Shown here piece after piece: positions 2,397 to 62,544 of a stretch of 64,000 nucleotides of DNA. The DNA is from Candidatus Forterrea multitransposorum CG_2015-17_Forterrea_25_41 (lineage in GTDB: Archaea > Iainarchaeota > Iainarchaeia > Iainarchaeales > CSSED10-239): assembly GCA_009392915.1 (NCBI GenBank), contig CP045477.1, positions 96,001-160,000 on the forward strand, given 5' to 3'. The position numbers and the translations under genes were made by a program. A model generated the notes under the pieces. It made no database searches. It worked only from the letters and a program-made list of their open reading frames with translations, and had not been told where the DNA came from. How positions within the stretch are numbered: position 1 is the first letter of the stretch; every line of letters starts with the position of its first letter.

Positions 2397-4484
2397 ATGC
2401 AGTTAAAGAAACTAACTTTAGTTTTATTATTTTTATTTATTTTTTCCATACCAGTTTTTTCTTCTTCTATAACTCTTTATGTTTCCTCTCCTTTTTCCTC
2501 TTCATCTTCAAATTTTAGTATTTCTCCTTCACTTTCTTTTGACAAGTTATCTTTAGTTTCAGAAGATAATTTATCTTTATTAAGAGAGCAAAATATTATT
2601 GTTAAAGAAGAAATTATTAAAGAAAAAGAATCTTCTTTAGAAGATAATTCTCTGTTAGAAGAAATAAATTCTCCAAATCATATTTATGAAACTTATTTTC
2701 AAGATTCTGTAATGATTGGAGATGTTTATTTTCCAGAAGGTATAATTGATTCTTCTCAAGTAAGAGAAAGAAGAAATATTAACTCTCAGTCTACAGTTGA
2801 TAATATTTGGGGTACCACTCCATTAACTGGAGAATATCATATTCCTGTTTTTTTAGTTGATTTTTCAGATGTTCCACATACTCTTTCTAAAGAAGTTTTT
2901 GAAGAACAATTTAATTCTCCTCTTTACTTGGACGGTAATGGTACAAGTGTAAGTCAGTATTACAAGAAACAATCCTATGGTGAACTTGATATTACTTTTG
3001 ATGTTTATGATTGGAGAGAAATGCCTGAAACTTATGAATATTATAGTACAAGATTAGGTGTTTTTGGAGCTCAAACAATAGATCTTTTTGGAACTGGTCC
3101 AAATGCAATTGATTTAACTCAATATGATTCTGATAATGATGGTAGGATAGATGGTTTTGTAATTGTTCACGCTGGTTTTTCTTTACAGAACGCTGGTACT
3201 GGTCATATTAAGACATCTACTTTATTAATGTATTCTGATGAAATTTTAACCATTCAAGGTTTGCATTATGGTAATATAGCTGTTACTTCTGAGAGATATC
3301 CTAGTTGTTCTTCTGGTTTTAATGAAAATTTAATTCCATATCCAGATGATTGTAGAATTGGTGTTTTAGATCAAACACATGAGTTTGGTCATATTTTAGG
3401 TCTTCCAGACTTTTATGGTATTGATCCAAATACTGGTGGTCAATCTCCTGGTCTTCAAAACCTAACTATGATGATGATGTATGATGACATTCCTCAAAAA
3501 CCAATTAATTTAGATGCTTGGGCAAGATATTTTTTAGGTTGGATACAACCAACTGTAATTGAAGAGGGCATGGAAGGTGTTTATCCAGTTTATTCAATTG
3601 ACACCAATCCAGATGGTGCTTTTATTTTACAAGATCTAACTGAGATGGATGAACGTGAATTTTTTATAATTGAAAATAGATTTATGCAAAACTCCCCTTA
3701 TAATCAAGATACTTTTCTTTTAAACACTTCTCAACTAAATTGGGATTATTTAAATGGTCATTTTGGTGGAATTGCAGTTTATCATGTTGATGAGCAATAC
3801 ATTGAAGATAATTATCCAACTAACAGTATCATGTGGGATCCTGATGGAGATTTTTATGATGATACTATAGGGCATCCTGGAATCGTTTTTGAAGAAAATA
3901 TAAAATTTTCAGAAAATAATTGGGATTATTCATTAGGAGATTTATATTCTAGTGAACGTAATGCTGGTTTTGGAGATAATACTTTTGGTAATTTTGATAG
4001 ATACCAAAGATTTTATCCAGAATATAATATGTTATGGGATTATCACAATAAAGCCTATAATGGTAATTTAACTGGTGTTACTGTTGGCACTTTAAGTGGT
4101 AGTGGATCTATAGTTTATGCTTATCTTCAAAGTTATCAAGAAACTTTTAATGCTTTAATCTCTTCTCCAAAAAATAACAGATGGTATAAGTATACTAATA
4201 ATTTAAATTTCATTTCAAGTTATTATAATAATTTAGGAGATGTAAGTTGTGTTTGGGAAGATTCCAGTAATAATATTCTATCTCAAGATTGTGAATTTTC
4301 TGCAACTCCAGAAGATTTAGGTTTACCAATCAGTGAATGTTCTGAGAAAATCACTCTAACTTTAGAAATAACAGATCAAGAAACTGGTGATACAATTATT
4401 GATACTGTTGATATAAAGATTTATGAAACCATAAGAGATATTTGTGAGACTGCTCATAACAACACCCAAGCAGCCACAAAATAA
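2397..4484 (+). CDS. secreted M6-family (immune inhibitor A-like) zinc metalloprotease
   Basis: N-terminal signal peptide (LTLVLLFLFIFSIPVFSSS). HEFGHILGLPDFYG matches the HExxHxLGLPDxY motif of the M6 metalloprotease domain (TIGR03296/PF05547 type). Large C-terminal non-catalytic region. Confidence 0.7.
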   Translation: MQLKKLTLVLLFLFIFSIPVFSSSITLYVSSPFSSSSSNFSISPSLSFDKLSLVSEDNLSLLREQNIIVKEEIIKEKESSLEDNSLLEEINSPNHIYETYFQDSVMIGDVYFPEGIIDSSQVRERRNINSQSTVDNIWGTTPLTGEYHIPVFLVDFSDVPHTLSKEVFEEQFNSPLYLDGNGTSVSQYYKKQSYGELDITFDVYDWREMPETYEYYSTRLGVFGAQTIDLFGTGPNAIDLTQYDSDNDGRIDGFVIVHAGFSLQNAGTGHIKTSTLLMYSDEILTIQGLHYGNIAVTSERYPSCSSGFNENLIPYPDDCRIGVLDQTHEFGHILGLPDFYGIDPNTGGQSPGLQNLTMMMMYDDIPQKPINLDAWARYFLGWIQPTVIEEGMEGVYPVYSIDTNPDGAFILQDLTEMDEREFFIIENRFMQNSPYNQDTFLLNTSQLNWDYLNGHFGGIAVYHVDEQYIEDNYPTNSIMWDPDGDFYDDTIGHPGIVFEENIKFSENNWDYSLGDLYSSERNAGFGDNTFGNFDRYQRFYPEYNMLWDYHNKAYNGNLTGVTVGTLSGSGSIVYAYLQSYQETFNALISSPKNNRWYKYTNNLNFISSYYNNLGDVSCVWEDSSNNILSQDCEFSATPEDLGLPISECSEKITLTLEITDQETGDTIIDTVDIKIYETIRDICETAHNNTQAATK

Positions 4485-4561
4485 AAAAATAAGTAAACCA
4501 TTTATATACTTTATGTTATATAATTTATAATATAATTATTTAAAATAAAAAATAAATTAAG

Positions 4562-7531
4562 GTGAATATTTTGATAAAAATAAAAAAAGGACAAATTTCT
4601 TTAGAAGCAATTATTATAATTGGTGTTATTGTTTTAGCAAGTATTATATTTGCGACATTCTATATTTCTAATGTTAATAAAAAAATAGATACTGCAAGTA
4701 ATCTAGATCCTAATTTTTCTGGAATGATTGGATCTGATGAAATGGGGTCAACTGATCCTATAACTATTGGTGAAGAACCAGGTCCAGGCCCAGGTCCAGG
4801 AGGAAGTACTTGTGGTGATAATATTATTGAAGGTACAGAAGATTGTGATGGTACTAATTTAGGTGGTGCTACATGTGAGTCTGAAGGTCAAGGTACAGGA
4901 GATTTATCTTGTAATTCAAATTGTACTTTTGATTATTCTGGTTGTTCTAGTCCAACAGCAAGTTATACAATAACTTCAAGTCATGGATCAAATGGAACTA
5001 TTTTTCCTTTAGGAGCTGTAACAGTTTTAGAAGGGGCAAGTAAAAAATTTAATTTGTATCCAAATGCAGGTTATGATGTAGATACTGTTTCAATTGATGG
5101 TGCAGAAGTTTCTCTTAGTGAAAGAAGAAGTTATACTTTTAATAATGTTACTTCCGGTCATACTATTCATGTAACTTTTAAACCTTATGCTTCAAATGAA
5201 CATATTATTTTTGCAAGTAGTGGTTCTCATGGAACCATAGATCCTGCAAGAAATAATACAGTTATAGAAGGAGATGATATTACTTTTACATTTAATCCAG
5301 ATACAGGATATCGTGTAGGTAATGTCTATATTGATGATACTACTGTTGGTTCAGAACAAATAGAGATTATTAATGATTTTTCTTCAAAAGATTCTGAAAA
5401 TAATAATTTATATTTTTCAGAAGAAGATGTTTTATATTTTGCATCTGATACAGGGACAGGTACTTCTTCAAATTTAGTTTATACTTTTGAAGATGTAGAT
5501 GATAGTCATACTATTCATGTAACTTTTATATCAAACACAACTCCTACATATACTTTAGAATATATTGCTGGAGCAAATGGTAGTATTTCTGGTCCAAATC
5601 CTCAAACTGTAAGTCAAGGAGAAGATGGTACAGAAGTATGTGCTGTTGCAGATGAAGGTTATGAATTTTTTAAATGGGATGATGATTATTATTCTGAATG
5701 TAGAACTGAAACAAATGTAACAAGTAATCAAACATATACTGTTATCTTTAATGAAAATGCAGGTCAAACAATGGCTATGAATTTAGAAGGTGTTGAATCA
5801 ACTCCAATAAATCAAAACTTTGATGTTGTTGTTAATACTTCTGAAACTCCAGGAACTGTAAGTTATGGTTTAGTTGCAGGATTATTAATTTATAATGATG
5901 TTGCAGGAGATTATTTGCCAACAAACAATTGTTCTTATAACGGAACTTTTGCTTCAAATCATACACTTGAAACAAATCAATCTCCAGGTATTGAAAATTA
6001 TACTTTTACATGTAATACTTCTGGAAACTATAAATTTACATTTACAGCAACAGATACAACTAACTCAACAAATGATGTTTCAAGAGATAAATTAATTACT
6101 GTTGTAAATAACCAAACAGCAGCACCAACATTTTCAATTGATGGAGGTACTTATTTTAATGATCAAACATTAACTTTAAGTTCAACAACTCCTAGTGCAA
6201 CTATAAAATACACAACTAATGGTACTATCCCAACTTGTACTACAGGAACAACTTATTCTCCTGCAAGTCCAATTCAAATTAATCAAATTTTAACAGTAAA
6301 AGCAATTGCTTGTAAATCTGGATATATTGATAGTCAAGTTGTTACAGAAATTTATAATTTAAAAGTTGGATATCCAGAACCAAGTGTTAATCCTGGTGTA
6401 TATTCTCAAGCACAGACAATTACTCTTTCAACAGAAACAATTGGTGCAACTTTGTATTATTCAACAGATGGTTCTGATGCTTTTGATGGAAGTGTTTACG
6501 TTCCAGGAGAAGAAATTATAATTTCAAAACCATATACTGAATTAAGAGTGGCAGGAGAAAAATCAAATTATAATGATAGTTCAGAATTTGATGAATATTA
6601 TTATATAAATGGTTATGAATCTCCAACTCCAAGTATGGTTTTTACAAATTATTATGGAGATGCATATAATCTTGTAGGTGCTGCAAATTTAACTCACTCA
6701 GATGTTTTCTTTGAAGATGAAGAAAATAATTTAGTAAGATTTGTTAATCCTAAATTAAATGGAGATTATTTTAACGGAAGTAATGCTTCAGGAGCTACAT
6801 TAATAGATTGTGAGGCATTTTGTTCTGAAAAGTATCTTGGAGGAACTTGTGATTCTTTTGATAAAACTAATTATTCTGGAAATGCAAATAATTTGATATA
6901 TTATAGAAATATGATTCCTGGTTCTGGTGGTGCAAATGATGTTTTCCCTTACACAATTGGGGGTGAGTTATCTAATTCTCCTCAATGGGCTTATGCTTCT
7001 GGAGCTATTGGTGGACCAGATAGAGTAGGATACTTCACTTGTGATTTTTCACACACCTCCAGTCCAGAAGATGCAGACTTTGGATTTATTGATTTATATA
7101 CTGAAGATTTATTATTAAATTATGGTGATCCATTTGATGGTACAGAATTCTATTATGATTCTTCAAGAGTAACTTTTGATAATGTTACAAAGTCTGGTTC
7201 AGAATATACTTATTCAGGTTTAAATGTTGTAGGTAATTTTGACACACCAGGCGCAACTGCTCCAACAGGAACAGTTTATATACTTTCAGATGATTTTTCA
7301 CAAGCTTGTGATGCTGTATGTGATGCTTTATATCAAGAAAGTTCTTGTGAAAATTATGATACAACAGATGTATATACTGCTAAAGGAGTTTCATATAATT
7401 ATTATCCTCCTGAATATGCAACAATATTTAATCCTAATTTAAGTACAGGTTATTATTGGACATCTGGAAGTCAACTTTTCTATGATGTTTGGTCAGAAGC
7501 TGTTCTTTCAGAAGTTACTTGTTCAAAGTAA
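4562..7531 (+). CDS. giant surface adhesin-like protein with archaeal class III (type IV pilin-like) signal peptide
   Basis: N-terminus ..IKIKKG|QISLEAIIIIGVIVLASIIF: short basic leader, G|Q, S+3, E+5, hydrophobic helix (QxSxE, DUF361-type). SD AAGGTGA 4559-4565 favours TTG 4571 as the real start. Also has a PGPGPGPGG linker and a Cys-rich CGDN..EDCDG..C..C repeat. Contains repeated ~80-aa beta modules (YTITSSHGSNGTI / HIIFASSGSHGTI / YTLEYIAGANGSI) and two TIKYTTNGT / TLYYSTDGS modules. Confidence 0.75.
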   Translation: MNILIKIKKGQISLEAIIIIGVIVLASIIFATFYISNVNKKIDTASNLDPNFSGMIGSDEMGSTDPITIGEEPGPGPGPGGSTCGDNIIEGTEDCDGTNLGGATCESEGQGTGDLSCNSNCTFDYSGCSSPTASYTITSSHGSNGTIFPLGAVTVLEGASKKFNLYPNAGYDVDTVSIDGAEVSLSERRSYTFNNVTSGHTIHVTFKPYASNEHIIFASSGSHGTIDPARNNTVIEGDDITFTFNPDTGYRVGNVYIDDTTVGSEQIEIINDFSSKDSENNNLYFSEEDVLYFASDTGTGTSSNLVYTFEDVDDSHTIHVTFISNTTPTYTLEYIAGANGSISGPNPQTVSQGEDGTEVCAVADEGYEFFKWDDDYYSECRTETNVTSNQTYTVIFNENAGQTMAMNLEGVESTPINQNFDVVVNTSETPGTVSYGLVAGLLIYNDVAGDYLPTNNCSYNGTFASNHTLETNQSPGIENYTFTCNTSGNYKFTFTATDTTNSTNDVSRDKLITVVNNQTAAPTFSIDGGTYFNDQTLTLSSTTPSATIKYTTNGTIPTCTTGTTYSPASPIQINQILTVKAIACKSGYIDSQVVTEIYNLKVGYPEPSVNPGVYSQAQTITLSTETIGATLYYSTDGSDAFDGSVYVPGEEIIISKPYTELRVAGEKSNYNDSSEFDEYYYINGYESPTPSMVFTNYYGDAYNLVGAANLTHSDVFFEDEENNLVRFVNPKLNGDYFNGSNASGATLIDCEAFCSEKYLGGTCDSFDKTNYSGNANNLIYYRNMIPGSGGANDVFPYTIGGELSNSPQWAYASGAIGGPDRVGYFTCDFSHTSSPEDADFGFIDLYTEDLLLNYGDPFDGTEFYYDSSRVTFDNVTKSGSEYTYSGLNVVGNFDTPGATAPTGTVYILSDDFSQACDAVCDALYQESSCENYDTTDVYTAKGVSYNYYPPEYATIFNPNLSTGYYWTSGSQLFYDVWSEAVLSEVTCSK

Positions 7532-19799: not shown

Positions 19800-20474
19800 G
19801 TGTTTGATATCGCAGATTTTCCAAAATTAGAATCTCCCTTTATAAGAAAAACTATTAATGAAAAATATATAGTAACTTTTGAGATTAATCCTAAATATAA
19901 ATGGATTTTTAATAGAAACATTGTTTTAGCTTCAGAAAAGATAGATGGAACTAATGTTTCAATAATTATAAATAAAGGAAAAATAATTGATATATACAAT
20001 AGAAAAAATAAAATTGAAATATTAGCAAATAAAAAATATTTTAGATTTATAGATGGTATCAACTATGCCTTATATAAAGAATTATTTAGAACAAATAAAT
20101 CTATGCAAATATTTGGAGAATTAATTGGGCCAACAGTTAATGGAAATCCCTATAATGAAGTAAGAAACATATGGGTGCCTTTTTCTTACTTAAAAGAAAA
20201 ATGTGAATTTAAATTTTGGAATAAATTTTTAGAAGAAGAAATTGACGGTAAAGATTTAAGCGAAAAAGAAATATTTGAAAAAACATCAAATATTTTTAAA
20301 AATCTTTGGAGTCTTTATTATAGAAGAAAAACAGGCGAAAAGATATTTGCTGAAGGAATTGTATTTTATAATAAAGAAACTGGAGAGATGTGTAAACTAA
20401 GAAGAGATATGTTTGATTGGTATGAAGGAATTAGTCATGATTTTTTTAAAGCTAAAGCAAAAAAAGATCTATAA
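19800..20474 (+). CDS. minimal ATP-dependent RNA ligase (Rnl2/PF09414-like adenylyltransferase domain only)
   Basis: Nucleotidyltransferase motifs in order: I EKIDGTN, III FGELIG, IV AEGIVFY, V CKLRR. 224 aa, no extra C-terminal domain. GTG start with GAGGTGG SD. Confidence 0.6.
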   Translation: MFDIADFPKLESPFIRKTINEKYIVTFEINPKYKWIFNRNIVLASEKIDGTNVSIIINKGKIIDIYNRKNKIEILANKKYFRFIDGINYALYKELFRTNKSMQIFGELIGPTVNGNPYNEVRNIWVPFSYLKEKCEFKFWNKFLEEEIDGKDLSEKEIFEKTSNIFKNLWSLYYRRKTGEKIFAEGIVFYNKETGEMCKLRRDMFDWYEGISHDFFKAKAKKDL

Positions 20475-20560: not shown

Positions 20561-21496
20561 ATGAGTTATTTATCTAAACTTAAAAGAAATAATAAAACAT
20601 ATTATTATCTTGTAGAAAATATTCCTATATCTAAAGGTAGGCGAAAACAAATTAGAAAATATATAGGGACAATTAAACCTACAGATCAAAAATTATCTTT
20701 AGAACTATTAAAGTTTGAAAAAGAAATTACTTCTAAAAAAAAACAAATGCAAGGATTTACCTATTTAACTAAAGAAGAAATAAAAGAAGTAGATGAAATT
20801 AATTCAAATTTTTGGAAAAAATATAATAAATTATCAAAAACTGAGAGAGAAGAATTTTGGAATAATTTTATTGGAATTTTTGTTTTTAACACAAACTCAA
20901 TAGAAGGTTCAACTTTAACATTAAAGGAAGTTGAACTACTATTATCTGAAAATATATCTCCAAATAGACCTTTAGAAGATGTTTTAGAAGCAAAATCTGC
21001 AAAAAAAGCAATTAATTTTATTTTAAATTATAAATCTGATTTGTCAATAGATTTAATTACTAAAATTCATAAAATATATTTTAAAGAAAGCTTTCCAGAT
21101 ATAGCTGGTAAATTTAAAAGATTAAATAATAGAATAAAAGGATCAAAATTTGATACTACTCCAAAAGAACTAGTTTTAACTGATTTAAAAATACTTATAG
21201 ATAATTATAAAAAATTTAAAAAAGAATTACATCCAATAGAATTATCTGCTTGGTTGCATTGGTCTTTTGTAAAAATTCATCCTTTTCAAGATGGAAATGG
21301 AAGAATTTCAAGATTACTTATGAATTTTATACTTTTTAAAAATAAATATGCTTTAATAGATATTAAAACAAAAGAAAAACAAACATATTTTAATTCTCTT
21401 GAAAAATGTAATTATTTGAATAATGGAAAACCATTAGCTCAAAGATTAGTTAGAAGATTTAAAAAACAGTATAAAAATATATTTTCAAATTTATAG
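20561..21496 (+). CDS. Fic/DOC-family protein (AMPylase-type motif)
   Basis: Canonical Fic motif HPFQDGNGRISRLLMNF (HxFx[DE]GNGRxxR). Confidence 0.9.
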   Translation: MSYLSKLKRNNKTYYYLVENIPISKGRRKQIRKYIGTIKPTDQKLSLELLKFEKEITSKKKQMQGFTYLTKEEIKEVDEINSNFWKKYNKLSKTEREEFWNNFIGIFVFNTNSIEGSTLTLKEVELLLSENISPNRPLEDVLEAKSAKKAINFILNYKSDLSIDLITKIHKIYFKESFPDIAGKFKRLNNRIKGSKFDTTPKELVLTDLKILIDNYKKFKKELHPIELSAWLHWSFVKIHPFQDGNGRISRLLMNFILFKNKYALIDIKTKEKQTYFNSLEKCNYLNNGKPLAQRLVRRFKKQYKNIFSNL

Positions 21497-27957: not shown

Positions 27958-29172
27958 ATGGATATTTTAAAAATTAGAGAAGATTTTAAAGTTTTAAAAG
28001 AAAATAAAATAATATATTTTGATAATGCAGCATCTTCTTTAAAACCAAAACAAGTTTTAGAAGGAATTAGTGAGTATTATTTAGACTTTCCTGTAAACAT
28101 TCATAGAGGTATACACAAATTATCAATGAGAGCATCTATAATCTATCAAGAAACAAGAGAAAAGCTTGCAAAGTTTATAGGATCTAAAGAAAATGAAGTT
28201 GTTTTTACAAACAATAGTACAGATGCAATCAATTTAGTGATGTATTCTCTTTATAATTCTGAATATTTAAAAAAAGATGATGAAATAATTCTTTCAATTC
28301 TAGAACATCATGCAAATTTAGTTCCTTGGCTTTTTTTATCTAAAAAAATAGGTGTTAAACTTAAGTTTGTTGAAATAAAAGATGATTTTACACTTGATAT
28401 GGAAGATTTTAAAAATAAACTTTCTTCTAAAACAAAGTTAGTTGCAATTACACATATTTCAAATACTACAGGAACTATTGTTCCAATTAAAGAAATTATT
28501 TCTTTATCTAAGAAATATGATTGTTTAACATTAATTGATGCTTCTCAATCAGCACCACATTTTAAAATAAACTTTAAAGAACTTGATTGTGATTTTCTTG
28601 TATTTACAGCTCATAAAATGTTAGGTCCTACAGGTTTAGGATTTTTAATTTCAAAAGAAAATAATTTAGAAAAGTTTATGCCATTTAAGTTTGGTGGGGA
28701 CATGATTAAAAATGTTTCAACAACTGATTTTAGTACTAATAGTGTTCCTTTTAAATTTGAAGCAGGAACTCCAAATATATCAGCAGTTTTTGGTTTTTCA
28801 AAAGCTATTGATTATTTATCTGATATTGGACTTGAAAATATTGAAAAACAAGATAAACTTTTATTAGAGTATGGTATTGAAAAATTAAAAGCTATTAAAA
28901 ATTTAGAATTTTTTAATCCTTTAGATAAAAATTTACAAAGTCCTATCTTTTTATTTAGACTTAAAGGTATTGATTGTAATGATCTTTCTGCAATTTTAGA
29001 TGATATGTCAAATATTGCAACTAGAGCGGGAGTTCATTGTGCAGAACCAATTGTTACAAGATTTGATAAAAATGGACTTTCAAGAGCTTCTCTTTATTTT
29101 TATAATACTTTTGAAGAAATTGATAAGTTTGTAGAGTCAATAAAGACAGTTGATGGTAAAATAAATGGATAG
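27958..29172 (+). CDS. cysteine desulfurase (class V aminotransferase, SufS/CsdA-like)
   Basis: ..FDNAASS.., ..ITHISNTTG.., PLP-lysine context FTAHKMLGPTGLGFL, and C-terminal ..RAGVHCAEP with the active-site Cys. Confidence 0.85.
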   Translation: MDILKIREDFKVLKENKIIYFDNAASSLKPKQVLEGISEYYLDFPVNIHRGIHKLSMRASIIYQETREKLAKFIGSKENEVVFTNNSTDAINLVMYSLYNSEYLKKDDEIILSILEHHANLVPWLFLSKKIGVKLKFVEIKDDFTLDMEDFKNKLSSKTKLVAITHISNTTGTIVPIKEIISLSKKYDCLTLIDASQSAPHFKINFKELDCDFLVFTAHKMLGPTGLGFLISKENNLEKFMPFKFGGDMIKNVSTTDFSTNSVPFKFEAGTPNISAVFGFSKAIDYLSDIGLENIEKQDKLLLEYGIEKLKAIKNLEFFNPLDKNLQSPIFLFRLKGIDCNDLSAILDDMSNIATRAGVHCAEPIVTRFDKNGLSRASLYFYNTFEEIDKFVESIKTVDGKING

Positions 29173-29271: not shown

Positions 29272-29562
29272 ATGACTAGCGAAAATGGATCTGTTGAAAC
29301 AAATATAATATATATTGGTAAAAAAGTAACAATGTCTTATGTTTTAGCAGTAATAACTCAATTTAACCAAGGTGCAGAAAGTGTTGTTATTAAAGCAAGA
29401 GGTAAAACAATATCAAAAGCAGTTGATGTTTCTGAGATTGTGAAAAATAAATTTGTAAATACTTTAAGAGTTGAAAAAATAAATATTTCTACAGAAGAGA
29501 TAACAACTGAAAACAATACCCCTATGAAAGTTTCTGCAATTGAAATTATACTTGCAAAGTAA
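29272..29562 (+). CDS. albA: DNA/RNA-binding protein Alba
   Basis: NIIYIGKK..MSYVLAVITQFNQGAESVVIKARGKTISKAVDVSEIVKNKF matches the Alba (PF01918) core. Confidence 0.85.
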   Translation: MTSENGSVETNIIYIGKKVTMSYVLAVITQFNQGAESVVIKARGKTISKAVDVSEIVKNKFVNTLRVEKINISTEEITTENNTPMKVSAIEIILAK

Positions 29563-29566
29563 ATTT

Positions 29567-31015
29567 CTAATTAACTATTAGTTTTGGTATTGGTAAGTTT
29601 AATTGAGGAAAATAATTATTTATTTTCTCAATAATTTTTTTTTCTTTTACAATTACTTTTTCTTTGTCTATTAAATATTTATTTTCATTTACATCTATTT
29701 TCTTAATGGTTTCAAGCTTCAAATATTTTATTGATTGAGCAAGTAAAGAATCATAAAACTTAGTATTTTTATGTTCTATAAACTTAGGTATCTCTTCAAT
29801 AAGGTCATTTATAAGTTTGTATTCTGTTAGATATTGTATAAACATAGGATTTTGTTCTAAATTGTTCTTGAAAGAATAATTATAGTTAAAAGAATTACTT
29901 AAATTTATAGAAGTTTCTAAATATTTTAATCTCTTTAAATATTCTTTTATTTTAATAGATAAGAAAGATTCTTTCTTTAAACAATACCATTTGATTTCAT
30001 CTAAGTTATCAATTATTTCAATTTCTTCTTCTGAAACTAAATTTACTGCATCTATTAAAGGAATACTTGCAAAATCTCCTTTGTAAAAAGGTCCTGTTGG
30101 CATTTCTTTTAAACCATTATTTTTTTTGAAATTAATTCTATTTTCTTTATTTATATTCTCTTGATGGAATTGTTCATATGCCCATTTTTGATCTTTTGAA
30201 ATAAAATAGAATCCTTGTTTTTTAAATCTTACTTTAACAATTGAATTTGATAAAACATTTATATCTAAATAGTTTTTTGGTTTACAACAATCACAATTTA
30301 AAGTATCATGCCCTATATTGTAAAAATCTTTTGTTAAAAGATATGGCCAGATATTTGAAAAATCCATTTTAATTCCTTGTCTTATGTTTTTTTCTTTTTC
30401 TAAGTATTCTATACTAATTTTATTGTTTAGCATCATTTTATTTTCAAAATATAAGTTTTCAAAGAAATTATTTAAAATTTCTTGATTATTAATATTTTTA
30501 ATTTTTATTTTTAATATGTTACTTAAAAGTAGTTTTTTAGTTAAGTTTTCAATTAACTTTAATTGCTCTTCTTTTAAGAAAGGATTTATATATTTTTTAA
30601 CAATTGAACTTATATTGTTATTTTCTATTTTTTTAATTCTTGTTTTTGAAACAATTATAAATAAATCATAATAACTCCATTCTTTCTCAATTAAATACTC
30701 TCTTTCAATATCTAAGATTAATATGTTTTTAGAAGTAGATATAGATAATATTTTATAAATCTTATTTAATGTTTCTTTATTTTTTGCAATTACTTTAATT
30801 TTATTTTTTTCAATTTTTTCTATATTTACTTCTCTTTTAAAATCAGATAATAGCTTTTGTACTACTTCTTTTGGAAGGTCAATATAAAAATAAGGGTTAA
30901 ATTTTTCCTTATAAACAAAATCATACTTATTGCTATAAGGATCTTTTGAAAAATAGCTTATAATTCTTTGTTTTTCTTCTTCATACACGCATTCTGTTAA
31001 ATATAGTTGTTCCAT
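29567..31015 (-). CDS. family-B DNA polymerase-like protein, truncated and probably catalytically inactive
   Basis: By-eye collinearity with remembered archaeal PolB. FNPYFYIDL (cf. F[RK]PY[IF]YAL), LDIEREYLIEKEW, MDFSNIWPYLL..HDTLNC (cf. motif A DFxSLYPSII..SPDTL), INLSNSFNYNYSF (cf. motif B KxLANSFYGYYGY). No DTD motif C (only FYDSLL). 482 aa versus about 775 aa, with the exonuclease region largely missing. Confidence 0.4.
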   Translation of the reverse strand: MEQLYLTECVYEEEKQRIISYFSKDPYSNKYDFVYKEKFNPYFYIDLPKEVVQKLLSDFKREVNIEKIEKNKIKVIAKNKETLNKIYKILSISTSKNILILDIEREYLIEKEWSYYDLFIIVSKTRIKKIENNNISSIVKKYINPFLKEEQLKLIENLTKKLLLSNILKIKIKNINNQEILNNFFENLYFENKMMLNNKISIEYLEKEKNIRQGIKMDFSNIWPYLLTKDFYNIGHDTLNCDCCKPKNYLDINVLSNSIVKVRFKKQGFYFISKDQKWAYEQFHQENINKENRINFKKNNGLKEMPTGPFYKGDFASIPLIDAVNLVSEEEIEIIDNLDEIKWYCLKKESFLSIKIKEYLKRLKYLETSINLSNSFNYNYSFKNNLEQNPMFIQYLTEYKLINDLIEEIPKFIEHKNTKFYDSLLAQSIKYLKLETIKKIDVNENKYLIDKEKVIVKEKKIIEKINNYFPQLNLPIPKLIVN

Positions 31016-34153: not shown

Positions 34154-34852
34154 ATGAATAAAAAAGATAAAAAATTTATTAAAAATAAAACTTTTAACAA
34201 TAATGTATTATTATTTGCATTCTTAATAATTGTGGTGTTATTTATTATTGTCTTTTCTGCAATTAATTTTTATGATAGTCATAAAAGAAAAGTAATTGAA
34301 GACGATTATAATATTTTACAACAACAGATTATTTTAAATGATCTTTATAAAAAATATTTAGATGAAACTAATTCTGAAAAATGTACTGTTTTAAAAAATC
34401 AATTAGATTCTTATCTTAATATTAATAGTGAACTTTACTTAAGACTTAAAAAAATAAATAGAAATGCAATTGTTGAATCAGATGATAGAACTAAACTTTT
34501 ATTTGTTTTAACAAATATTAATCTTTGGCTTCATTATAACTCTATTGAAAAAGAGTGTGGATATAATAAAGAAAGAGCAATTTTATATTTTTATCCTGAG
34601 TTTCAAGATTTTAGTGTCGAAAAAGCAGAATCTGATGCTAGAACTTTATTTTTTGCAGAAAAATTAGAAAGATTAACTAAAGAGTGTAATTTAAATTCAA
34701 TTGCTCTTCCTTATGTTGATTATATTCCTATTTTAAATCAAATAATTTCTGATTATAATATTAATTCATCTCCATCAGTATATATTAATGGAAAAGTATA
34801 TTATGATGTAAATTTAGATGAATCTTTCTTAAAAGAGATTGGATGTAGATAA
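34154..34852 (+). CDS. N-terminally anchored extracytoplasmic protein, unknown function
   Basis: Single N-terminal TM (VLLFAFLIIVVLFIIVFSAINF). C-terminal ..SSPSVYINGKVYY resembles the end of DsbA-like folds, but no CxxC is present. Confidence 0.35.
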   Translation: MNKKDKKFIKNKTFNNNVLLFAFLIIVVLFIIVFSAINFYDSHKRKVIEDDYNILQQQIILNDLYKKYLDETNSEKCTVLKNQLDSYLNINSELYLRLKKINRNAIVESDDRTKLLFVLTNINLWLHYNSIEKECGYNKERAILYFYPEFQDFSVEKAESDARTLFFAEKLERLTKECNLNSIALPYVDYIPILNQIISDYNINSSPSVYINGKVYYDVNLDESFLKEIGCR

Positions 34853-35605: not shown

Positions 35606-36077
35606 AATATTATTTGTTTGTAGTGGGAATGTTTTTAGAAGTATGTGTGCTAAATATTGTTTAGAATATTTTTTAGCTAAAAATAATATTAAAAATATTT
35701 CTGTAGATTCTGCAGGTATTTCTGTAACTTCTAAAAAACCACAAAATATTGCTTTAGAAGTTAAAGAGTTACTTTTTAAAAAAGGAATAGATGTTTCAAA
35801 GCATTTATCTAAGAATGTTTCAAAAGTTGATTTAAAATCTTTTGATTTAGTAATCTCTATGGGTTATAATCATAAAAAATATTTAAAAGAAAAATATGGT
35901 ATTTCTTCTGTTTTATTTAATAAAGTGTGTTACGGTGTTAATTATCCTGTTTATGATAATAATGAAATTTTAAAAGAATATAAAGGTTTTAGAGGTAAGA
36001 TTTATAATATAGAAGTTGTTAAAAAAATTTATTCAGATATTAAATTTTTTCACAAAAATTATAAAAAATTCATTTAA
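35598..36077 (+). CDS. low-molecular-weight protein-tyrosine phosphatase / ArsC-like
   Basis: P-loop MVKILFVCSGNVFRS (CX5R[ST]). ATG 35598 overlaps the upstream stop (ATGGTTAA); track start is 35586. Confidence 0.8.
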   Translation: MVKILFVCSGNVFRSMCAKYCLEYFLAKNNIKNISVDSAGISVTSKKPQNIALEVKELLFKKGIDVSKHLSKNVSKVDLKSFDLVISMGYNHKKYLKEKYGISSVLFNKVCYGVNYPVYDNNEILKEYKGFRGKIYNIEVVKKIYSDIKFFHKNYKKFI

Positions 36078-36705
36078 TTTTTTTTAAACAAATTTTGTTT
36101 ATTGGGCATTTTTCACAATTAGGATTTCTTGGAAAACAAATGTTTTGTCCTAAGATAACAAATAAATAGTTTGTATCTATCCAAAATTTTTTAGGAAGTT
36201 TATTTCTTAAAACCATTTCTGTTTCTAAAGGGTTTTTTGTTTCAATATAGCCTATTCTATTAAATATTCTGTGTACATGTGTATCTACACAAATAGCTGG
36301 TATTTTATATGATACTGCAATTACTAGATTTGCAGTTTTTCTTCCTACACCTGGAAGAGTAATTAATTCTTCTATGGTTCTTGGTACTTTATTATTAAAA
36401 TCTTCTTTTAATTTTTTTGCAAGTAACTTTAAGTTTTTAGCTTTAGTTTTATAAAATCCAACAGGATATAATAATTGTTCTAATTTTTCAATTTTAATTT
36501 TTATTAAGTCATCTGTATTCTTTATTTCTTTAAATAAATTATCACAAACTTTTGCAGTAATTTGATCTTTTGTTCTTGCTGAAAGCATTGTTCCAATTAA
36601 TACATAAAAAGAATTTTTACTTTTAATATCTATTTGTTCTGCAAGAGGAATTGTGTACTCTTTTAACTCTTTTTCAAGAATTTTATATATTTTTTCAATA
36701 TCCAT
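36070..36705 (-). CDS. nth: endonuclease III (DNA glycosylase/AP lyase)
   Basis: HhH-GPD LPGVGRKTANLV, catalytic-Lys region, VDTHVHRI, and C-terminal 4Fe-4S cluster CFPRNPNCEKCPINKIC. Confidence 0.9.
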   Translation of the reverse strand: MDIEKIYKILEKELKEYTIPLAEQIDIKSKNSFYVLIGTMLSARTKDQITAKVCDNLFKEIKNTDDLIKIKIEKLEQLLYPVGFYKTKAKNLKLLAKKLKEDFNNKVPRTIEELITLPGVGRKTANLVIAVSYKIPAICVDTHVHRIFNRIGYIETKNPLETEMVLRNKLPKKFWIDTNYLFVILGQNICFPRNPNCEKCPINKICLKKIK

Positions 36706-36791: not shown

Positions 36792-38186
36792 ATGAACAAA
36801 AATTTAACAAAATTATTTTTCTGGATATTTGGTATAATATTCAGTGGAATTTTTTATTTTTTCTCAAAAACATCTACTTCTTTATCATATATTAATGAAA
36901 TTAAGTTTCTTCCATACGTAATAATGTTAATAATTATTTTGTTATTTTTCTTAATTGGTATTTTATTTTCGAAAATACCTTTTTTTTGGTATTCAAAATT
37001 TAGAAAATCCAATCTTAATGAAGTTTTATCTGAAGTTGATGTAAAAAAAACTGAAGAAAATATTGATCAATTAATTGATAAATTAAAAGATGCTATAAAA
37101 AATATTAGTAAAAGTAATTATTCTCAAATATCTATAAATTATTTAATAAAGAATGTAGGTATTTCAAAAGAAAGTGCAGATGGAATTATTAAAAATATAA
37201 AGAGATTAAAAAGATTAAAAACTTTATCAATAGCTTTAGGAATTATAATTTCTTTAGGTTTATATTTTTTTGTAAGTAGTTTACCAGTATTTAATATTAT
37301 TCCAAATTATGTGTTTATAATATCTGCAGTAATTATTTTTCTTTTATTTGTTTTAGAAGGTTATTTAATTACAAGAATGCCTGATTCATTTTATTTAAAT
37401 TTAATTAATATAAATAAAGAAAAAATATTAGAAGTTAAAAGAGAATCTTTAGAAAAAGAAGAAAAGTTAAATAATTATAATCAAAAACAAAAAGGTTTGT
37501 TAGATAATATTCAAAAAGCAACTAAATTTCTTTTATCTCAAGATGTAAGTAAAGAAGCAATTTCTAATTTCTTTAGTAAATATGATGTTGATCAGTCTAC
37601 AATTTCAAAATTTATTGAACTTTCAGAAAAAGAATTAAATATTGAAAAGAATAATTCTGGAAAAGTTTTATTTAATGCAAAATCAGATTCTGCAATAAGA
37701 TTAACTCTTTCTAAAATACACGATAGTTTTGAACAAATTAATCAAATATATAATGAAGTTTCAAAACTTCAAAAAGAAGTAAGTGATATTTCTCAAAGAC
37801 AAGAAAAACTTGAAAAAATGTCAACTATTAGTGTTTCAAAAGAAGTTAAAAAACTTAAAAAAGAACCAATAATGTCAAACAAGTATAAGGATTTAAAAAA
37901 AGCAGATCCTAAAGAAATTAAAGAATTGTTAGATAAAAGAAATGAAGAATATGATAAACTTATAAGTTATTTATATCACTTGTTCTTACCATCTGTTGAA
38001 ACTTCTTCTCAAAATGATGTTTTTTCTACATTAGTTTATTATGGTTATCCTTATGAGATTGTAGAAGATGTTTTACAAAAGTTTAAAGATAAAAAAATTA
38101 ATTTCGGGAAAGATAAAAAAGTATCTTTCTCTGAAAAATTAGTAAATAAAATTAATGGTTTTTATGAATTATTTGCCTCTAAATAA
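36792..38186 (+). CDS. uncharacterised 4-TM / coiled-coil protein, paralog A (see 49583-50956)
   Basis: Two TM hairpins separated by a helical loop, a long K/E-rich helical region, and a small C-terminal domain. Clear by-eye paralogy with the 457-aa ORF at 49583. Confidence 0.6.
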   Translation: MNKNLTKLFFWIFGIIFSGIFYFFSKTSTSLSYINEIKFLPYVIMLIIILLFFLIGILFSKIPFFWYSKFRKSNLNEVLSEVDVKKTEENIDQLIDKLKDAIKNISKSNYSQISINYLIKNVGISKESADGIIKNIKRLKRLKTLSIALGIIISLGLYFFVSSLPVFNIIPNYVFIISAVIIFLLFVLEGYLITRMPDSFYLNLININKEKILEVKRESLEKEEKLNNYNQKQKGLLDNIQKATKFLLSQDVSKEAISNFFSKYDVDQSTISKFIELSEKELNIEKNNSGKVLFNAKSDSAIRLTLSKIHDSFEQINQIYNEVSKLQKEVSDISQRQEKLEKMSTISVSKEVKKLKKEPIMSNKYKDLKKADPKEIKELLDKRNEEYDKLISYLYHLFLPSVETSSQNDVFSTLVYYGYPYEIVEDVLQKFKDKKINFGKDKKVSFSEKLVNKINGFYELFASK

Positions 38187-45475: not shown

Positions 45476-45961
45476 ATGTTTAAACTATTTAAGAAGACAA
45501 GAGTTACAGAAGTTGTTGAAATTGATGAGTCTACTATTTCTGAAATTAAAAGACCTAAAGTTGTTCAAGTAGAACAAAAGAACTATAGAGTTAAATCTAT
45601 TGATTGGTTAGAACAACATTATATAGTTGTTTCAGAAGTTGCATCTGGTAAAAAAACTGGTGCAAGACAACAAGGAAAATTTACTTTTGAAGGAAGACAG
45701 ATCTATAAGGATGATGTTACAAGAAAACTTTATAGTGATCTTTTAGATAATTATAGTTATTATGCTATGACTGTTAAAAGATATATTGTTGTTAGAAAAG
45801 AACTTGAGATTATTGATAAACAAAAAGATGAAGAATACTTAATTGCAGGTAGAGCGAAAGAATTTAATTTAGAAGCTTCAAGACTTGAGAATGCATTAAA
45901 TGTTTATCTAACAAATATTAATGTTATTAAAAATAAGATTAAGGATTATTTATATTCTTAA
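45476..45961 (+). CDS. hypothetical protein
   Basis: 161-aa ORF with GGTGA SD. Ordinary K/E-rich composition. No motif recognised. Confidence 0.5.
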   Translation: MFKLFKKTRVTEVVEIDESTISEIKRPKVVQVEQKNYRVKSIDWLEQHYIVVSEVASGKKTGARQQGKFTFEGRQIYKDDVTRKLYSDLLDNYSYYAMTVKRYIVVRKELEIIDKQKDEEYLIAGRAKEFNLEASRLENALNVYLTNINVIKNKIKDYLYS

Positions 45962-46443: not shown

Positions 46444-46518
46444 GGGAGTGTAGCTTAGTCTGGTTGGAGCACTCGACTGATAATCGAGAGGCCGCAGGTT
46501 CGAATCCTGCCATTCCCA
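46444..46518 (+). tRNA. tRNA-Ile (anticodon GAU)
   Basis: Acceptor GGGAGTG/CATTCCC, anticodon stem CTCGA/TCGAG, loop CTGATAA, T arm GCAGG-TTCGAAT-CCTGC, discriminator A. TTTATAAATT box about 20 nt upstream. Confidence 0.9.
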
Positions 46519-46559
46519 CTTTCTATTTTTATATAGATTTTAAAAAAAGAGGATAATTT

Positions 46560-49450: not shown

Positions 49451-49525
49451 GGAAGTGTAGCTTAGTCTGGTTAGAGCATTGGTCTTATACACCAAAGGTC
49501 GCAGGTTCGAATCCTGCCATTTCCA
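49451..49525 (+). tRNA. tRNA-Ile (anticodon UAU)
   Basis: Acceptor GGAAGTG/CATTTCC, anticodon stem TTGGT/ACCAA, loop CTTATAC (UAU), T arm GCAGG-TTCGAAT-CCTGC. D and T arms almost identical to tRNA-Ile(GAU) at 46444. Confidence 0.85.
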
Positions 49526-49582
49526 CTTTTTTTTAAAAATAAAGCTTTATAAATCTAATTAACTACTATATATTAGATAATT

Positions 49583-60141: not shown

Positions 60142-62544
60142 ATGCAAAAGAGATTAGGTATTTTAGGTATTTTTTTAATAGTTTTAATGTTTGTTTTTTC
60201 ATCAGGCTTTGTTTTTGCTGAAAATTCATTTGTAAGTTATAGTTCTACTTCAAAAGTAGGTTGGGAAATAACTTCTGCTGAAATTACAAATGATAATATT
60301 GAAATTAATTACATGAATAATCTTGAAGCAAGAGATTCTTGTAAAACAAATGAAAGAACTTTTATGTGGGTTCCTTTTGCAACAGAATATAGAGGTTTGT
60401 TTTTAGTAACTCTTTTTGTTCCTAATAATTTTAATAATGAATCTGGATTTGATTCATTTTTGTATGATAATTTGTCTGACAGAGGAAAAAGTGAAAATGA
60501 AACAGAAGATACTCTTAAAAAATATGAACGATATTTAAAAAGTAATGATCCTACTTTTATGAATTATTTAAATAGTTATGTTAGTGAAGATAAATATTTT
60601 TATATAGTTAAAATTGAAGATGATTTTAAACAAAATAAAAATTATACTCATAATATTGATTTAAGTATGATTAATGAATTAGATAAATTTGGAAAAGTTT
60701 ATATTTATTTATATGATCATTGTGGAAGTTTATCTTCATTTTATCATAATGACTATAAAATTTCTAAAAATCTTGCGAAAGCAGTTTATAATTTTAGTGA
60801 TGGTCAAGAAGAAACTTCTAAAAAAGAAAATGCTACTTCAATAAAATTATCTTCTTCTATTGAAGATAATAAAATAAAATTAGATTCAAATGTTACTGAT
60901 AATGTTAATATTTATTATACATTAGATGATTTTAATTTAGAAAACCATTTTAAATCAAAATTTGTTGAATTTAATTATAATAAAGAAAAAATAAATACTT
61001 ATCTTAAAAGTAATTCTTGGAATATTAATCAATTTGGGGTAAATTTTAAAGTGACTAAATATACTGCACCTGTATCTTTATCTTCTGGACAAAAACTAAA
61101 TGCAATTGCAGTTAATTATGATAATTTTACTTTAAGTAATTATCTTGAAGGAATTACTCTTTCATCTTCTGAAAATTATTCTTCATCTTCTCAAAGCAAT
61201 AATTTTTCAATTAACTTTAAAGAAGATAAAAAAACAGATAATGTGATTTGTGAAAAGGAAACAAAAATTTGTTATGTTAAATTTAATCAAAACATTGATT
61301 TAGATTTAATTGCAAATAAAGTAAATGATGGAAATGTTTATTTTTATATTAATGATATAGAAGGAGATATTGAAAATATTGTAAAAAGCTTATCTTCTCC
61401 TCTTTTAAATATTACACCACCTGCTAAATTAAATGATAATAAACTAAGTTTAGGAAGTAATTTATTCAAATATTCAGATTTAGAAAATTATACTCTAAAT
61501 CTTAATCAAAATGAATCAAAGTTTTTTACTATTAGTGCTTTCCAATTAAATACAAATGTTGATAAGTTATATTTTGTATTTTTACCTGACGAAAACTTTG
61601 AAGATTTAGTAAAATATAAAACTTTACAAAAAATAATAAATTCTGTATATTGTGATGGTTGTAAAATTCCAGATTGGATGCCAAATGGATTAATAATTGA
61701 TAATCAAAATTTATCTACTAGTGATCCTGATCCTTCTACTAGTGATCCTGATCCTTCTACTAGTGATCCAAATTGTAAATATACTGGTGATTTTGAAATT
61801 TTATGTGATTTTCATATCTTTAATTTAGATAAAGATATTGGAAGTAGTTCTATTGATAGTTCAGCAGGAACATTTAGCCCTAAAGAAACATATTATTTAG
61901 AAATTGAATATTTTTATAATGATAAAAAAAATAATTTTAATAAAAATTTAGAAGCTTATAAATTATTTGAATCTGAAAAAAATAATTTTAATCTTACTGA
62001 AAATGAAATTACAATATTTTTTTCAATAATTGGAGGAGAATCCTCTTTTTTAAATGATCAAGCTGGTGATCAAGGAGAATCTATAGGTTTAACTCAAATA
62101 AATAAACCTATATGGAGAACAGAAAGTGGTTTTAATGATCTAAAAGTATATCTTCCAAGTGAAGTTAATACAGTTGAAAAATATTATAAATATTTTGATG
62201 ATTCTAAAAATGATTTAAATAAATCTTTATATTTAGGTCTTGCAGTTTTTAAATATAATTTAAATTATGCTAAAAATAATATTTCTAACTTTAATTCAAA
62301 GTATTCAGATATTGATAGAGCATTTATAATGTTTTACGCACACCAGTTTAATATAAGAGATACAAAAACATTCTTTAATACTGTAAATATTCCTACAGAT
62401 AAAGAAAATGTAATTATTAATTGTGCAGGAACTGGTAATGATTTATTCCAAAATTCTTCTTTAAAGAAACTTGGTTGTGTTGCGACTGTAGGTTCTGTAA
62501 GAAAAATTGGATGGTATCTTAATTACATAAATAATTTAAATTAA
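60142..62544 (+). CDS. secreted 800-aa protein with C-terminal lytic-transglycosylase-like (SLT, PF01464-like) domain
   Basis: Signal peptide LGIFLIVLMFVFSSGFVFA. C-terminal ..IIGGESSFLNDQAGDQGESIGLTQI.. matches the SLT pattern ES.F...A.S..GA.GLMQ. Downstream ..LYLGLAVFKYNL.. and ..FIMFYAHQ.. resemble later SLT helices. An STSDPDP linker precedes it. Confidence 0.55.
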   Translation: MQKRLGILGIFLIVLMFVFSSGFVFAENSFVSYSSTSKVGWEITSAEITNDNIEINYMNNLEARDSCKTNERTFMWVPFATEYRGLFLVTLFVPNNFNNESGFDSFLYDNLSDRGKSENETEDTLKKYERYLKSNDPTFMNYLNSYVSEDKYFYIVKIEDDFKQNKNYTHNIDLSMINELDKFGKVYIYLYDHCGSLSSFYHNDYKISKNLAKAVYNFSDGQEETSKKENATSIKLSSSIEDNKIKLDSNVTDNVNIYYTLDDFNLENHFKSKFVEFNYNKEKINTYLKSNSWNINQFGVNFKVTKYTAPVSLSSGQKLNAIAVNYDNFTLSNYLEGITLSSSENYSSSSQSNNFSINFKEDKKTDNVICEKETKICYVKFNQNIDLDLIANKVNDGNVYFYINDIEGDIENIVKSLSSPLLNITPPAKLNDNKLSLGSNLFKYSDLENYTLNLNQNESKFFTISAFQLNTNVDKLYFVFLPDENFEDLVKYKTLQKIINSVYCDGCKIPDWMPNGLIIDNQNLSTSDPDPSTSDPDPSTSDPNCKYTGDFEILCDFHIFNLDKDIGSSSIDSSAGTFSPKETYYLEIEYFYNDKKNNFNKNLEAYKLFESEKNNFNLTENEITIFFSIIGGESSFLNDQAGDQGESIGLTQINKPIWRTESGFNDLKVYLPSEVNTVEKYYKYFDDSKNDLNKSLYLGLAVFKYNLNYAKNNISNFNSKYSDIDRAFIMFYAHQFNIRDTKTFFNTVNIPTDKENVIINCAGTGNDLFQNSSLKKLGCVATVGSVRKIGWYLNYINNLN
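61714..61770 (+). repeat. perfect 21-nt in-frame tandem repeat (2.7 copies) encoding STSDPDP
   Basis: TCTACTAGTGATCCTGATCCT at 61714-61734 and 61735-61755, then TCTACTAGTGATCCA at 61756-61770. Confidence 0.95.

Follow-up and report, generated by a model that had tools for sequence, protein, structure and literature searches.

What is left for a family-B DNA polymerase (PolB) to do once its exonuclease domain and its thumb are gone? The question is raised by mini-PolB, a minus-strand gene in a 64,000-nucleotide stretch of Candidatus Forterrea multitransposorum DNA (contig CP045477.1, positions 96,001–160,000; the window, below, means this whole stretch). A reading made from the sequence alone (the sequence-only reading) had called its 482-residue product a miniaturised, apparently inactivated PolB homologue, a relic kept perhaps as a replisome scaffold. 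The reading frame is present with an ATG start, and miniaturised, inactivated homology now has support from structure comparison and profile–profile alignment, the catalytic positions being unconserved across the family. The architecture is secure: N-terminal domain, palm and fingers are kept, two domains are lost, and a conserved module resembling a GINS B-domain interrupts the palm. Mini-PolB is probably a previously undescribed non-enzymatic adaptor of DNA repair or replication; we favour, at a probability of roughly 45%, a putative non-catalytic DNA-binding adaptor for DNA-end processing by HerA–NurA and Rad50, perhaps also for replication restart.

Homology to family-B polymerases and the fate of the catalytic positions

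An AlphaFold2 model built from 29 homologues (predicted local distance difference test 86.4, predicted template modelling score 0.86) has family-B polymerases as its best 50 Foldseek matches in the PDB (best E value 8e-8, probability 1.00), among them those of Tgo, 9°N, P. abyssi, KOD and Pyrobaculum and Pol epsilon. A broad family profile (73 sequences, identity down to 18%) likewise has a PolB, 5mdn_A, as its top match among PDB sequences (hmmsearch, E 0.011, two collinear pieces). In hhalign it aligns with Pfu Pol at E 7e-4, placing residues 161–250 on Pfu 330–435; the Pfu sequence used matches 3a2f_A end to end (1749.5 bits) and the P. furiosus polymerase at 100% identity. Compared with seven DPANN and four Thermococcales PolBs together, the family reaches a probability of 98.5% (E 1.6e-15). 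The DPANN PolBs alone give the best profile match (E 4.6e-16) and the Thermococcales alone E 1.4e-3, so mini-PolB descends, as a paralogue, from a PolB of DPANN type. PF03104 and PF00136, the Pfam models named earlier as a check, match neither the query, even at E up to 10, nor, with the limit set at E 1, any of the 73 members. Nothing relevant emerged when the protein or a close-clade profile was searched directly against Pfam, NCBIfam and PDB sequences.

Canonical DPANN PolBs for comparison surfaced through a genome scan with the pattern G[YFP][ED]T[LIY][NK]Cx[CD]C. It matched ten (L046–L055), in metagenome-assembled genomes (MAGs) of Woesearchaeota, Nanoarchaeia and Nanobdellati and in two MAGs labelled Methanosarcinales. 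Seven of the reading frames seem complete, at 754–829 amino acids (for example, the 810-residue Woesearchaeota PolB at L046:8714–11146); most fit a strict motif B pattern, and motif C is intact in all save the intein-length frame of L049. They have N-terminal domain, palm and fingers in common with mini-PolB. The surroundings of motif A are near-identical (HNIGPDTLNCDCC versus YNIGHDTLNCDCC) and the fingers start similarly (FCKNKKGFISS and YCLKKESFLS), whereas the exonuclease domain, thumb and intact motif C of the canonical proteins are all missing from mini-PolB. The L049 frame (2955–6644) has 1230 codons and no DTD; it is probably interrupted by an intein and runs off the contig. The two PolBs labelled 'uncultured Methanosarcinales archaeon' (L051, CAYNCK010000040.1; L055, CAYSWQ010000007.1) are Woesearchaeota-like CxCC proteins, a placement that may reflect mis-binning or horizontal transfer.

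Region-by-region hhalign and the secondary structure of the model give the domain map in Table 1. Both hhalign and hmmsearch put the N-terminal strings singled out earlier (FNPYFYIDL and LDIEREYLIEKEW), as well as the string given for motif A (MDFSNIWPYLL...HDTLNC), on the matching PolB elements. At Pfu ~130, where the N-terminal domain ends, the alignments skip to Pfu ~330, passing over the ExoI–III region (PolB ~131–329, Pfu numbering), and in the linker the model has helices at 135–143 and 148–168. Residues 136–250 align with PolBs at E 3e-12 and residues 340–482 with DPANN PolBs at E 2e-10, a region that the hmmsearch match to 5mdn_A also covers; of the insert, only 16 residues at its N-terminal edge (232–247, YNIGHDTLNCDCCKPK) align with PolB. 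The C terminus coincides with the end of the palm, where the thumb would start: the alignment stops near Pfu ~575–590 of 775, and thumb and KxY motif are absent by alignment. Exonuclease domain and thumb are both lost in their entirety, and what is kept is collinear with PolB. A deficit of about 290 residues had been noted and attributed mostly to the exonuclease. The figure holds as a net value, composed of ~385 residues lost (~200 exonuclease, ~185 thumb) and ~100 gained; the missing thumb and the insert had gone unnoticed.

Motif B and C positions were taken from the hhalign mapping, with which hmmsearch is concordant; a global MAFFT alignment with PolBs mis-threaded after the insert and was discarded there. 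The string previously assigned to motif B (INLSNSFNYNYSF, 369–381) is really the loop at the tip of the finger helices, the motif itself mapping to 403–411. Absence of the motif C DTD was rightly seen, although the candidate put in its place (FYDSLL, 420–425) aligns with ARWY and the true position is 447–453. D218, the motif A Asp, is conserved in 56 of 73 members (81/101 in a larger set), and the Tyr of SLYP is never Tyr (W, L, V or F instead). The fingers Arg (Pfu R461) has become Leu/Ile and the fingers Lys (Pfu K465) Glu/Asp; in motif B the Lys is retained in 7/73, and Pro replaces the Tyr in 48/73. At motif C the first Asp is Asp in 11/73, and the second is Glu in 7/73, Asp not being among the eight commonest residues there. 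In the window protein the three carboxylate positions happen to be occupied by D218, D450 and E452, but there is no family-wide constraint on them. Judged by alignment, then, catalytic and deoxynucleotide-binding residues are no longer conserved and the family should not be a polymerase; with neither thumb nor deoxynucleotide-binding residues, mini-PolB cannot be a conventional one.

A conserved family with an inserted module and four cysteines

The 38 close homologues of mini-PolB (481–535 amino acids, 42–95% identity) are all unnamed or 'hypothetical protein', the 95% match being at locus L011 of 'Candidatus ainarchaeum sp. isolate STF1_257'. Neither Pfam nor NCBIfam has a model for the family, which is called hypothetical in the sources that name it. 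A hidden Markov model (HMM) scan of 1.84 billion representatives gave 160 mini-PolB clusters (50% identity) at E ≤1e-3, of which the 150 listed are all ≤546 amino acids; the scan reached no full-length PolB among the clusters listed. Where members are named, their MAGs are those of Candidatus Iainarchaeum, ainarchaeum and Diapherotrites; many others come from unclassified 'archaeon' MAGs, and one cluster member carries a Candidatus Micrarchaeota label. Searching with the broad alignment returned the close clade again and one divergent member, P0154. P0016 (535 amino acids) has an internal tandem duplication of ~53 residues in the segment forming part 2 of the N-terminal domain (KIRPEINIKNDEILNILFENNFY..., alignment A1 columns 220–272), which its near-identical relatives do not have. 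No mini-PolB relatives were found on viral contigs, leaving a viral or mobile-element origin unsupported; an origin in a defence system is equally unsupported, there being no PADLOC match.

Conservation within the family is concentrated on the insert. Seven residues are invariant in 73/73 members (P41, C241, C243, C244, G308, D322 and C345) and four nearly so (R293 and P309 in 72/73, W343 in 71/73, H284 in 68/73); all except P41 fall in residues 241–345, so that the inserted module with its four cysteines is the most conserved part of mini-PolB. In the profile–profile alignment just one long gap, between CxCC and the Cys of WFC, marks the insertion site. The core signature of the module, PTGPF...IPLIDAVNL...W, spans residues 306–343 (nucleotides 29987–30100), and a two-helix insert within the module (276–300) bears H284 and R293. 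Fold matches to the module include Tko GINS (3anw_A, 3anw_B) and eukaryotic Psf2, Psf3, Sld5 and Psf1, placing it with the B-domain fold; the N-terminal domain of bL9 scores similarly, and the fold evidence alone is therefore moderate.

Sequence comparisons point the same way. Among 62 single module sequences, Pfam searches matched PSF2_N in seven (best E 5.5e-4) and Gins51_C in three (best E 0.005), both below gathering score, and every other Pfam family matched once only; the window's own module, one of these three, matches Gins51_C at E 0.13 over residues 308–330. With hhalign, the module profile aligns with human PSF2 at E 3.7e-4, setting residues 306–336 (PTGPFYKGDFASIPLIDAVNLVSEEEIEII) on PSF2 32–62, and the full-length profile stretches this alignment to W343/W65. 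The score (28.1) exceeds those of all 300 shuffles (mean 11.7, standard deviation 2.1, maximum 20.8); the PSF2 sequence used is identical to 2e9x_B. We read the module as a fold of GINS B-domain type to which two helices have been added; it may have been captured from a GINS gene or may have converged on this form.

The cysteines are older than the insertion. Canonical DPANN PolBs have the same four around a loop of 12–20 residues (NCxCC...WFCxKKxGF), and it is between CxCC and the fourth Cys that mini-PolB has ~100 residues inserted. Pfu has C429 and C443 at the third and fourth positions, a pair that we take to be equivalent to the Cys428–Cys442 disulfide of Tgo and KOD polymerases. Mini-PolB derives from DPANN-type PolBs that already carried the Cys4 motif. 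In mini-PolB the site is predicted to bind Zn or an Fe–S cluster, and the tandem CC, the change of C243 to Asp in one subclade and the IscS/IscU synteny described below hint at Fe–S. That change (NCNDCKP in P0016, P0017, P0019 and P0021 of alignment A1) is compatible with a swap of metal ligands and may help to distinguish Zn from Fe–S. The four-Cys motif of the canonical, apparently active DPANN PolBs lies at the palm–fingers hinge, where Thermococcales PolBs have their disulfide and Pol epsilon its CysX Fe–S site. It may itself be an archaeal PolB metal site; a 2020 PolB census states that no such site had been detected in archaeal PolBs.

Gene neighbourhood and proposed function

Gene context was analysed in 35 species-representative loci (L011–L045), 17 of which form a deep-branching set (L028–L045 without L044). 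In 15 of these, mini-PolB is preceded on its own strand by HerA (DUF87), at spacings down to 73–240 bp, and in 12 NurA, likewise identified through Pfam, lies farther upstream. Rad50, identified through the Pfam families SMC_N, AAA_23 and SbcC Walker B, is convergent downstream in 16, at 0.5–0.9 kb in 15 of them and 2.3 kb in L039. The ~550-bp gap before rad50 contains rpoK (Rpb6 by Pfam in L006) and a small gene read as rps17e from sequence alone. At the locus of P0154, the divergent member that came from a separate search, HerA is likewise upstream, at 74 bp. In a neighbour-joining tree rooted on canonical PolBs, herA/rad50-linked loci occur to either side of the deepest split, with L028 and L034 as sisters of the window's clade, and pairwise identity within the linked group has a minimum of 20% (median 30%). 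Since the linked loci straddle the deepest split at identities this low, the arrangement is probably ancestral, and we infer an original order nurA–herA–mini-PolB–rpoK–rps17e, convergent with rad50. Linkage has eroded stepwise, HerA being 3–7 kb off in an intermediate clade. Motif scans and Pfam found no Mre11-like phosphoesterase in any of the 35 loci or the window, and MCM, GINS, PCNA, primase and PolD do not occur beside mini-PolB in either.

Other neighbours are less regular. The sequence-only reading had stressed a tail-to-tail arrangement with Alba, which is real (Table 1). Alba is among the neighbours in 16/35 loci, all in close or intermediate clades and sometimes with other genes between; the adjacency is probably close-clade synteny, functional linkage is unlikely, and of the ancestral neighbours it is NurA, HerA and Rad50 that are informative. 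A class-V cysteine desulfurase of IscS/SufS type adjoins mini-PolB in 14 loci, which may be coincidental, and in L028 (3693–5434, minus strand) an IscU/NifU_N scaffold gene stands beside the desulfurase; the desulfurase may matter if it is an Fe–S cluster that the Cys4 site holds. In the P0029 subclade a divergent gene ~320 bp upstream encodes a DHH-family protein of 293–296 amino acids (L009:1969–2850 and L010:1821–2711, both minus strand), DHH being the superfamily of GAN/RecJ/Cdc45, a known partner of the Gins51 B-domain. The P0034 clade has an intein-containing HerA (DUF87, Intein_splicing and LAGLIDADG, 834 amino acids) 3 kb downstream (L001–L003:10508–13012).

Because the ancestral neighbourhood is nurA–herA/rad50 with no mre11 nearby, a role in end processing with HerA–NurA and Rad50 seems most likely. 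The PolB-derived cradle of N-terminal domain, palm and fingers would bind single-stranded DNA or a single-strand/duplex junction without chemistry, and the module, stapled by Zn or an Fe–S cluster, would act as a protein-docking surface. Such an adaptor might hold or protect the 3′ strand or the junction, or pass resected ends to the replication machinery; a bridge to replication restart is conceivable because Gins51 B-domains (Gins51C) bind GAN and the N-terminal part of the PolD subunit DP1 (DP1N; PMC9023282). In the window's lineage the gene has become unlinked from these partners.

Several points weigh against this assignment. It draws on the neighbourhood of relatives, not on that of the window: none of HerA, NurA and Rad50 is detectable within 10 kb in the window's closest clade, or by tblastn in the 64-kb window. 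Across the Diapherotrites loci rad50 is by itself on the other strand, which means that the genes do not form one operon, and because rpoK and rps17e are housekeeping genes within the conserved block, part of the synteny may reflect slow rearrangement. As to the module, all Pfam matches to GINS families are under gathering thresholds, and the module profile found no GINS among PDB sequences. Proximity of the four cysteines in mini-PolB follows from homology to the PolB loop rather than from coordinates, and both DNA binding and docking are putative.

Of the competing accounts, that of a replisome adaptor comes closest, although we consider it unlikely. The module would here mimic the Gins51/Psf1 B-domain and bind GAN/RecJ (Cdc45), the DP1 N-terminus or MCM, by analogy with the non-catalytic C-terminal PolB module that tethers Pol epsilon to CMG; the known B-domain partners are replisome proteins, the P0029 subclade has its DHH-family neighbour, and two family members match DUF1744 faintly (E 0.018). 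These matches are far under threshold, however, the DHH neighbour is limited to one subclade, the conserved ancestral neighbours are repair genes, and no gene for MCM, GINS, PCNA, primase or PolD adjoins mini-PolB in the 35 loci or the window. The replisome scaffold of the sequence-only reading thus stays a live rival without being the best-supported function. Distinctly less probable is a stand-alone nucleic-acid-binding factor, acting in chromatin, in RNA metabolism or in redox or Fe–S sensing through Cys4, for which the neighbourhood would be uninformative. The gene is monocistronic in the window, Alba is its immediate neighbour in the close clade, rpoK and rps17e lie downstream in the deep-branching clade, IscS and IscU recur nearby, and the PolB N-terminal domain is an RNA-binding-like fold. 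Yet Alba is convergent and in some relatives separated by inserted genes, and a same-strand herA 73–240 bp away, in lineages at 20–30% identity, is hard to explain without functional linkage.

The catalytic positions bear on two further accounts. An active polymerase, either a split enzyme supplied with exonuclease and thumb in trans or one using unconventional catalytic residues, is very improbable. PolB2, long predicted to be inactive, does have polymerase activity (PMC8764526), and D218, D450 and E452 are present in the window protein; the same positions drift across the family as detailed above, motif B has lost its Lys, Asn and Tyr, the two basic residues of the fingers and the SLYP Tyr are gone as well, and there is no thumb or KxY region. 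Neighbouring genes encode no thumb-like or exonuclease-like fragment, which argues against a split enzyme, so the active split fragment that had been named as the alternative to an inactivated protein is not borne out. A decaying, pseudogene-like relic without function is the least credible account of all. Loss of domains and catalytic motifs would fit it, but the frame is intact, length is held at 480–510 amino acids across ~160 clusters at 50% identity, invariant residues persist at 18–30% identity, the predicted fold is compact and confident, and a new domain has been gained on which conservation is strongest; the relic of the sequence-only reading is effectively refuted by this conservation. 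The adaptor for HerA–NurA and Rad50 end processing is the account that we carry forward.

The window itself is AT-rich (GC ~19–29%) and is an archaeal chromosome segment encoding aIF5B, GatE, Alba, aminoacyl-tRNA synthetases, a class III signal peptide protein and the thermosome. Divergent upstream of mini-PolB are genes for a sulfatase-like membrane protein and a GT2 glycosyltransferase. Within ~15 kb of mini-PolB in the window there are no replisome or repair genes except one for an EndoIII-type glycosylase (36070–36705). An RNA-ligase-family protein (19800–20474, plus strand) is encoded beside a Fic/DOC-family protein (20561–21496, plus strand), ~9 kb from mini-PolB. ARAGORN finds tRNA-Ile(TAT) besides tRNA-Ile(GAT), with calls at 49451–49526 and 46444–46519 (both plus strand), and two tRNA-Gln genes (CTG and TTG). 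Four plus-strand reading frames have no Pfam match at E ≤1e-3: 60142–62544 (800 amino acids), 36792–38186 (464), 34154–34852 (232) and 45476–45961 (161).

Table 1. Mini-PolB, its domains and the adjoining genes in the window
Feature	Position	Strand	Description
Mini-PolB gene	29567–31015	minus	ATG start, 482 amino acids; stop codon 29567–29569
Residues 1–130	30626–31015	minus	PolB N-terminal domain, first part; holds FNPYFYIDL and EREYLIEKEWSYYD motif
Residues 131–160	30536–30625	minus	Short helical linker replacing the ~200-residue 3′–5′ exonuclease domain
Residues 161–240	30296–30535	minus	N-terminal domain, second part, and first part of palm; degenerate motif A KMDFSNIWPYLL (216–227; D218)
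Residues 241–345	29981–30295	minus	Inserted module bracketed by C241, C243, C244 and C345; GINS B-domain-like
Residues 346–414	29774–29980	minus	Fingers: two long helices (351–379, 390–414); degenerate motif B position 403–411 (NDLIEEIPK)
Residues 415–482	29567–29773	minus	Palm, second part; TKFY (418–421) corresponds to PolB ARWY; motif C position is hairpin 447–453 (YLIDKEK), no DTD
Alba gene	29272–29562	plus	PF01918, E 8.6e-20; convergent with mini-PolB, 4 bp from its stop
Class-V aminotransferase gene (cysteine desulfurase, IscS/SufS-like)	27958–29172	plus	PF00266, E 6.5e-127; beyond Alba

Comparison with known systems

Inactivated PolBs are known. PolB2 and the C-terminal module of Pol epsilon are conserved PolB paralogues without canonical catalytic motifs (PMC2527604, PMC2669801, PMC7544198), and the latter has a structural role, anchoring the polymerase to CMG (PMC7544198). 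The concept of a dead polymerase reused as a scaffold, central to the build of the eukaryotic replisome through the C-terminal half of Pol epsilon (DUF1744), is the same here. Both known examples, however, are near full length with a degenerate exonuclease and thumb, whereas mini-PolB has neither; the PolB2 group has a D(K/R) motif and keeps a single Asp of motif C (PMC7544198), whereas in mini-PolB neither motif C Asp is conserved; and neither a GINS-like insertion nor herA–nurA linkage is reported for them. Earlier archaeal dead-polymerase examples were near full length and one proved active. Mini-PolB is a more radical remodelling, with two domains deleted, catalytic residues drifted and a GINS-B-like domain grafted into the palm. 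We found in the literature no described PolB derivative that is without exonuclease and thumb, has a GINS-like insertion and is linked to herA–nurA–rad50; the 2020 census of PolB diversity makes no mention of such a protein, and its supplements hold nothing on Iainarchaeia or Micrarchaeia.

The graft stands at the hinge position where Pol epsilon bears its Fe–S-stapled P-domain. In yeast Pol2, C665, C668, C677...C763 around the P-domain hold a [4Fe-4S] 'iron staple' (PMC6582351), and, according to PMC7544198, only Pol epsilon orthologues have the CysX motif and the P-domain. Mini-PolB has its insert at the same site (palm, between motif A and fingers) and in the same 3+1 Cys clamp, with offsets from the motif A Asp of +23, +25, +26 and +127 against +25, +28, +37 and +123 in Pol2 (residues 640–1186, identical to the PDB chains), similarities that make the insertion and its clamp a parallel to Pol epsilon. 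There is no detectable homology between the insert and the Pol2 P-domain region (hhalign, E 0.36, not significant), and Pol epsilon, unlike mini-PolB, is active. One could go further and see in mini-PolB an archaeal counterpart of the non-catalytic Pol epsilon module, a dead polymerase turned coupling subunit whose built-in, Fe–S-stapled GINS B-domain docks to HerA–NurA, Rad50, GAN/RecJ or PolD DP1; this analogy is speculative and, in our view, improbable. Were it true, mini-PolB might fill the Mre11 position in the Diapherotrites herA–rad50 cluster, linking double-strand-break resection to replication restart. The CxCC...C site would then be an independent second 'iron staple', so far thought unique to Pol epsilon, and cysteine-stapled domain insertion at the palm–fingers hinge would have arisen in archaeal PolBs.

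B-domains are protein-docking modules, whose partners in GINS are GAN/Cdc45, the N-terminus of DP1/Dpb2, and MCM. With the B-domains of GINS (C-terminal in Gins51; N-terminal in Psf2, Psf3 and Gins23) the module has a small beta-rich fold in common, along with the signature GPF-x(6-7)-[IV]PL-x-[DL]A-x2-L...W. Unlike them, it sits inside a polymerase palm within a four-Cys clamp and has the extra two-helix insert with conserved H284/R293. There is no GINS A-domain, the rest of the protein being PolB-derived, and mini-PolB therefore cannot form a GINS tetramer.

The archaeal herA–mre11–rad50–nurA cluster is the closest parallel in gene order. Mini-PolB loci differ from it in having no Mre11, in the interleaved rpoK and rps17e, in the convergent rad50 and, in the window, in an unlinked gene; mini-PolB is also without nuclease-like features. 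In deep-branching loci it nevertheless stands between herA and rad50, with nurA upstream, in roughly the place that mre11 takes in thermophiles. The linkage of nurA–herA/rad50 without mre11 offers a concrete, testable hypothesis for a missing DNA-end-processing component in a poorly understood, reduced-genome archaeal phylum.

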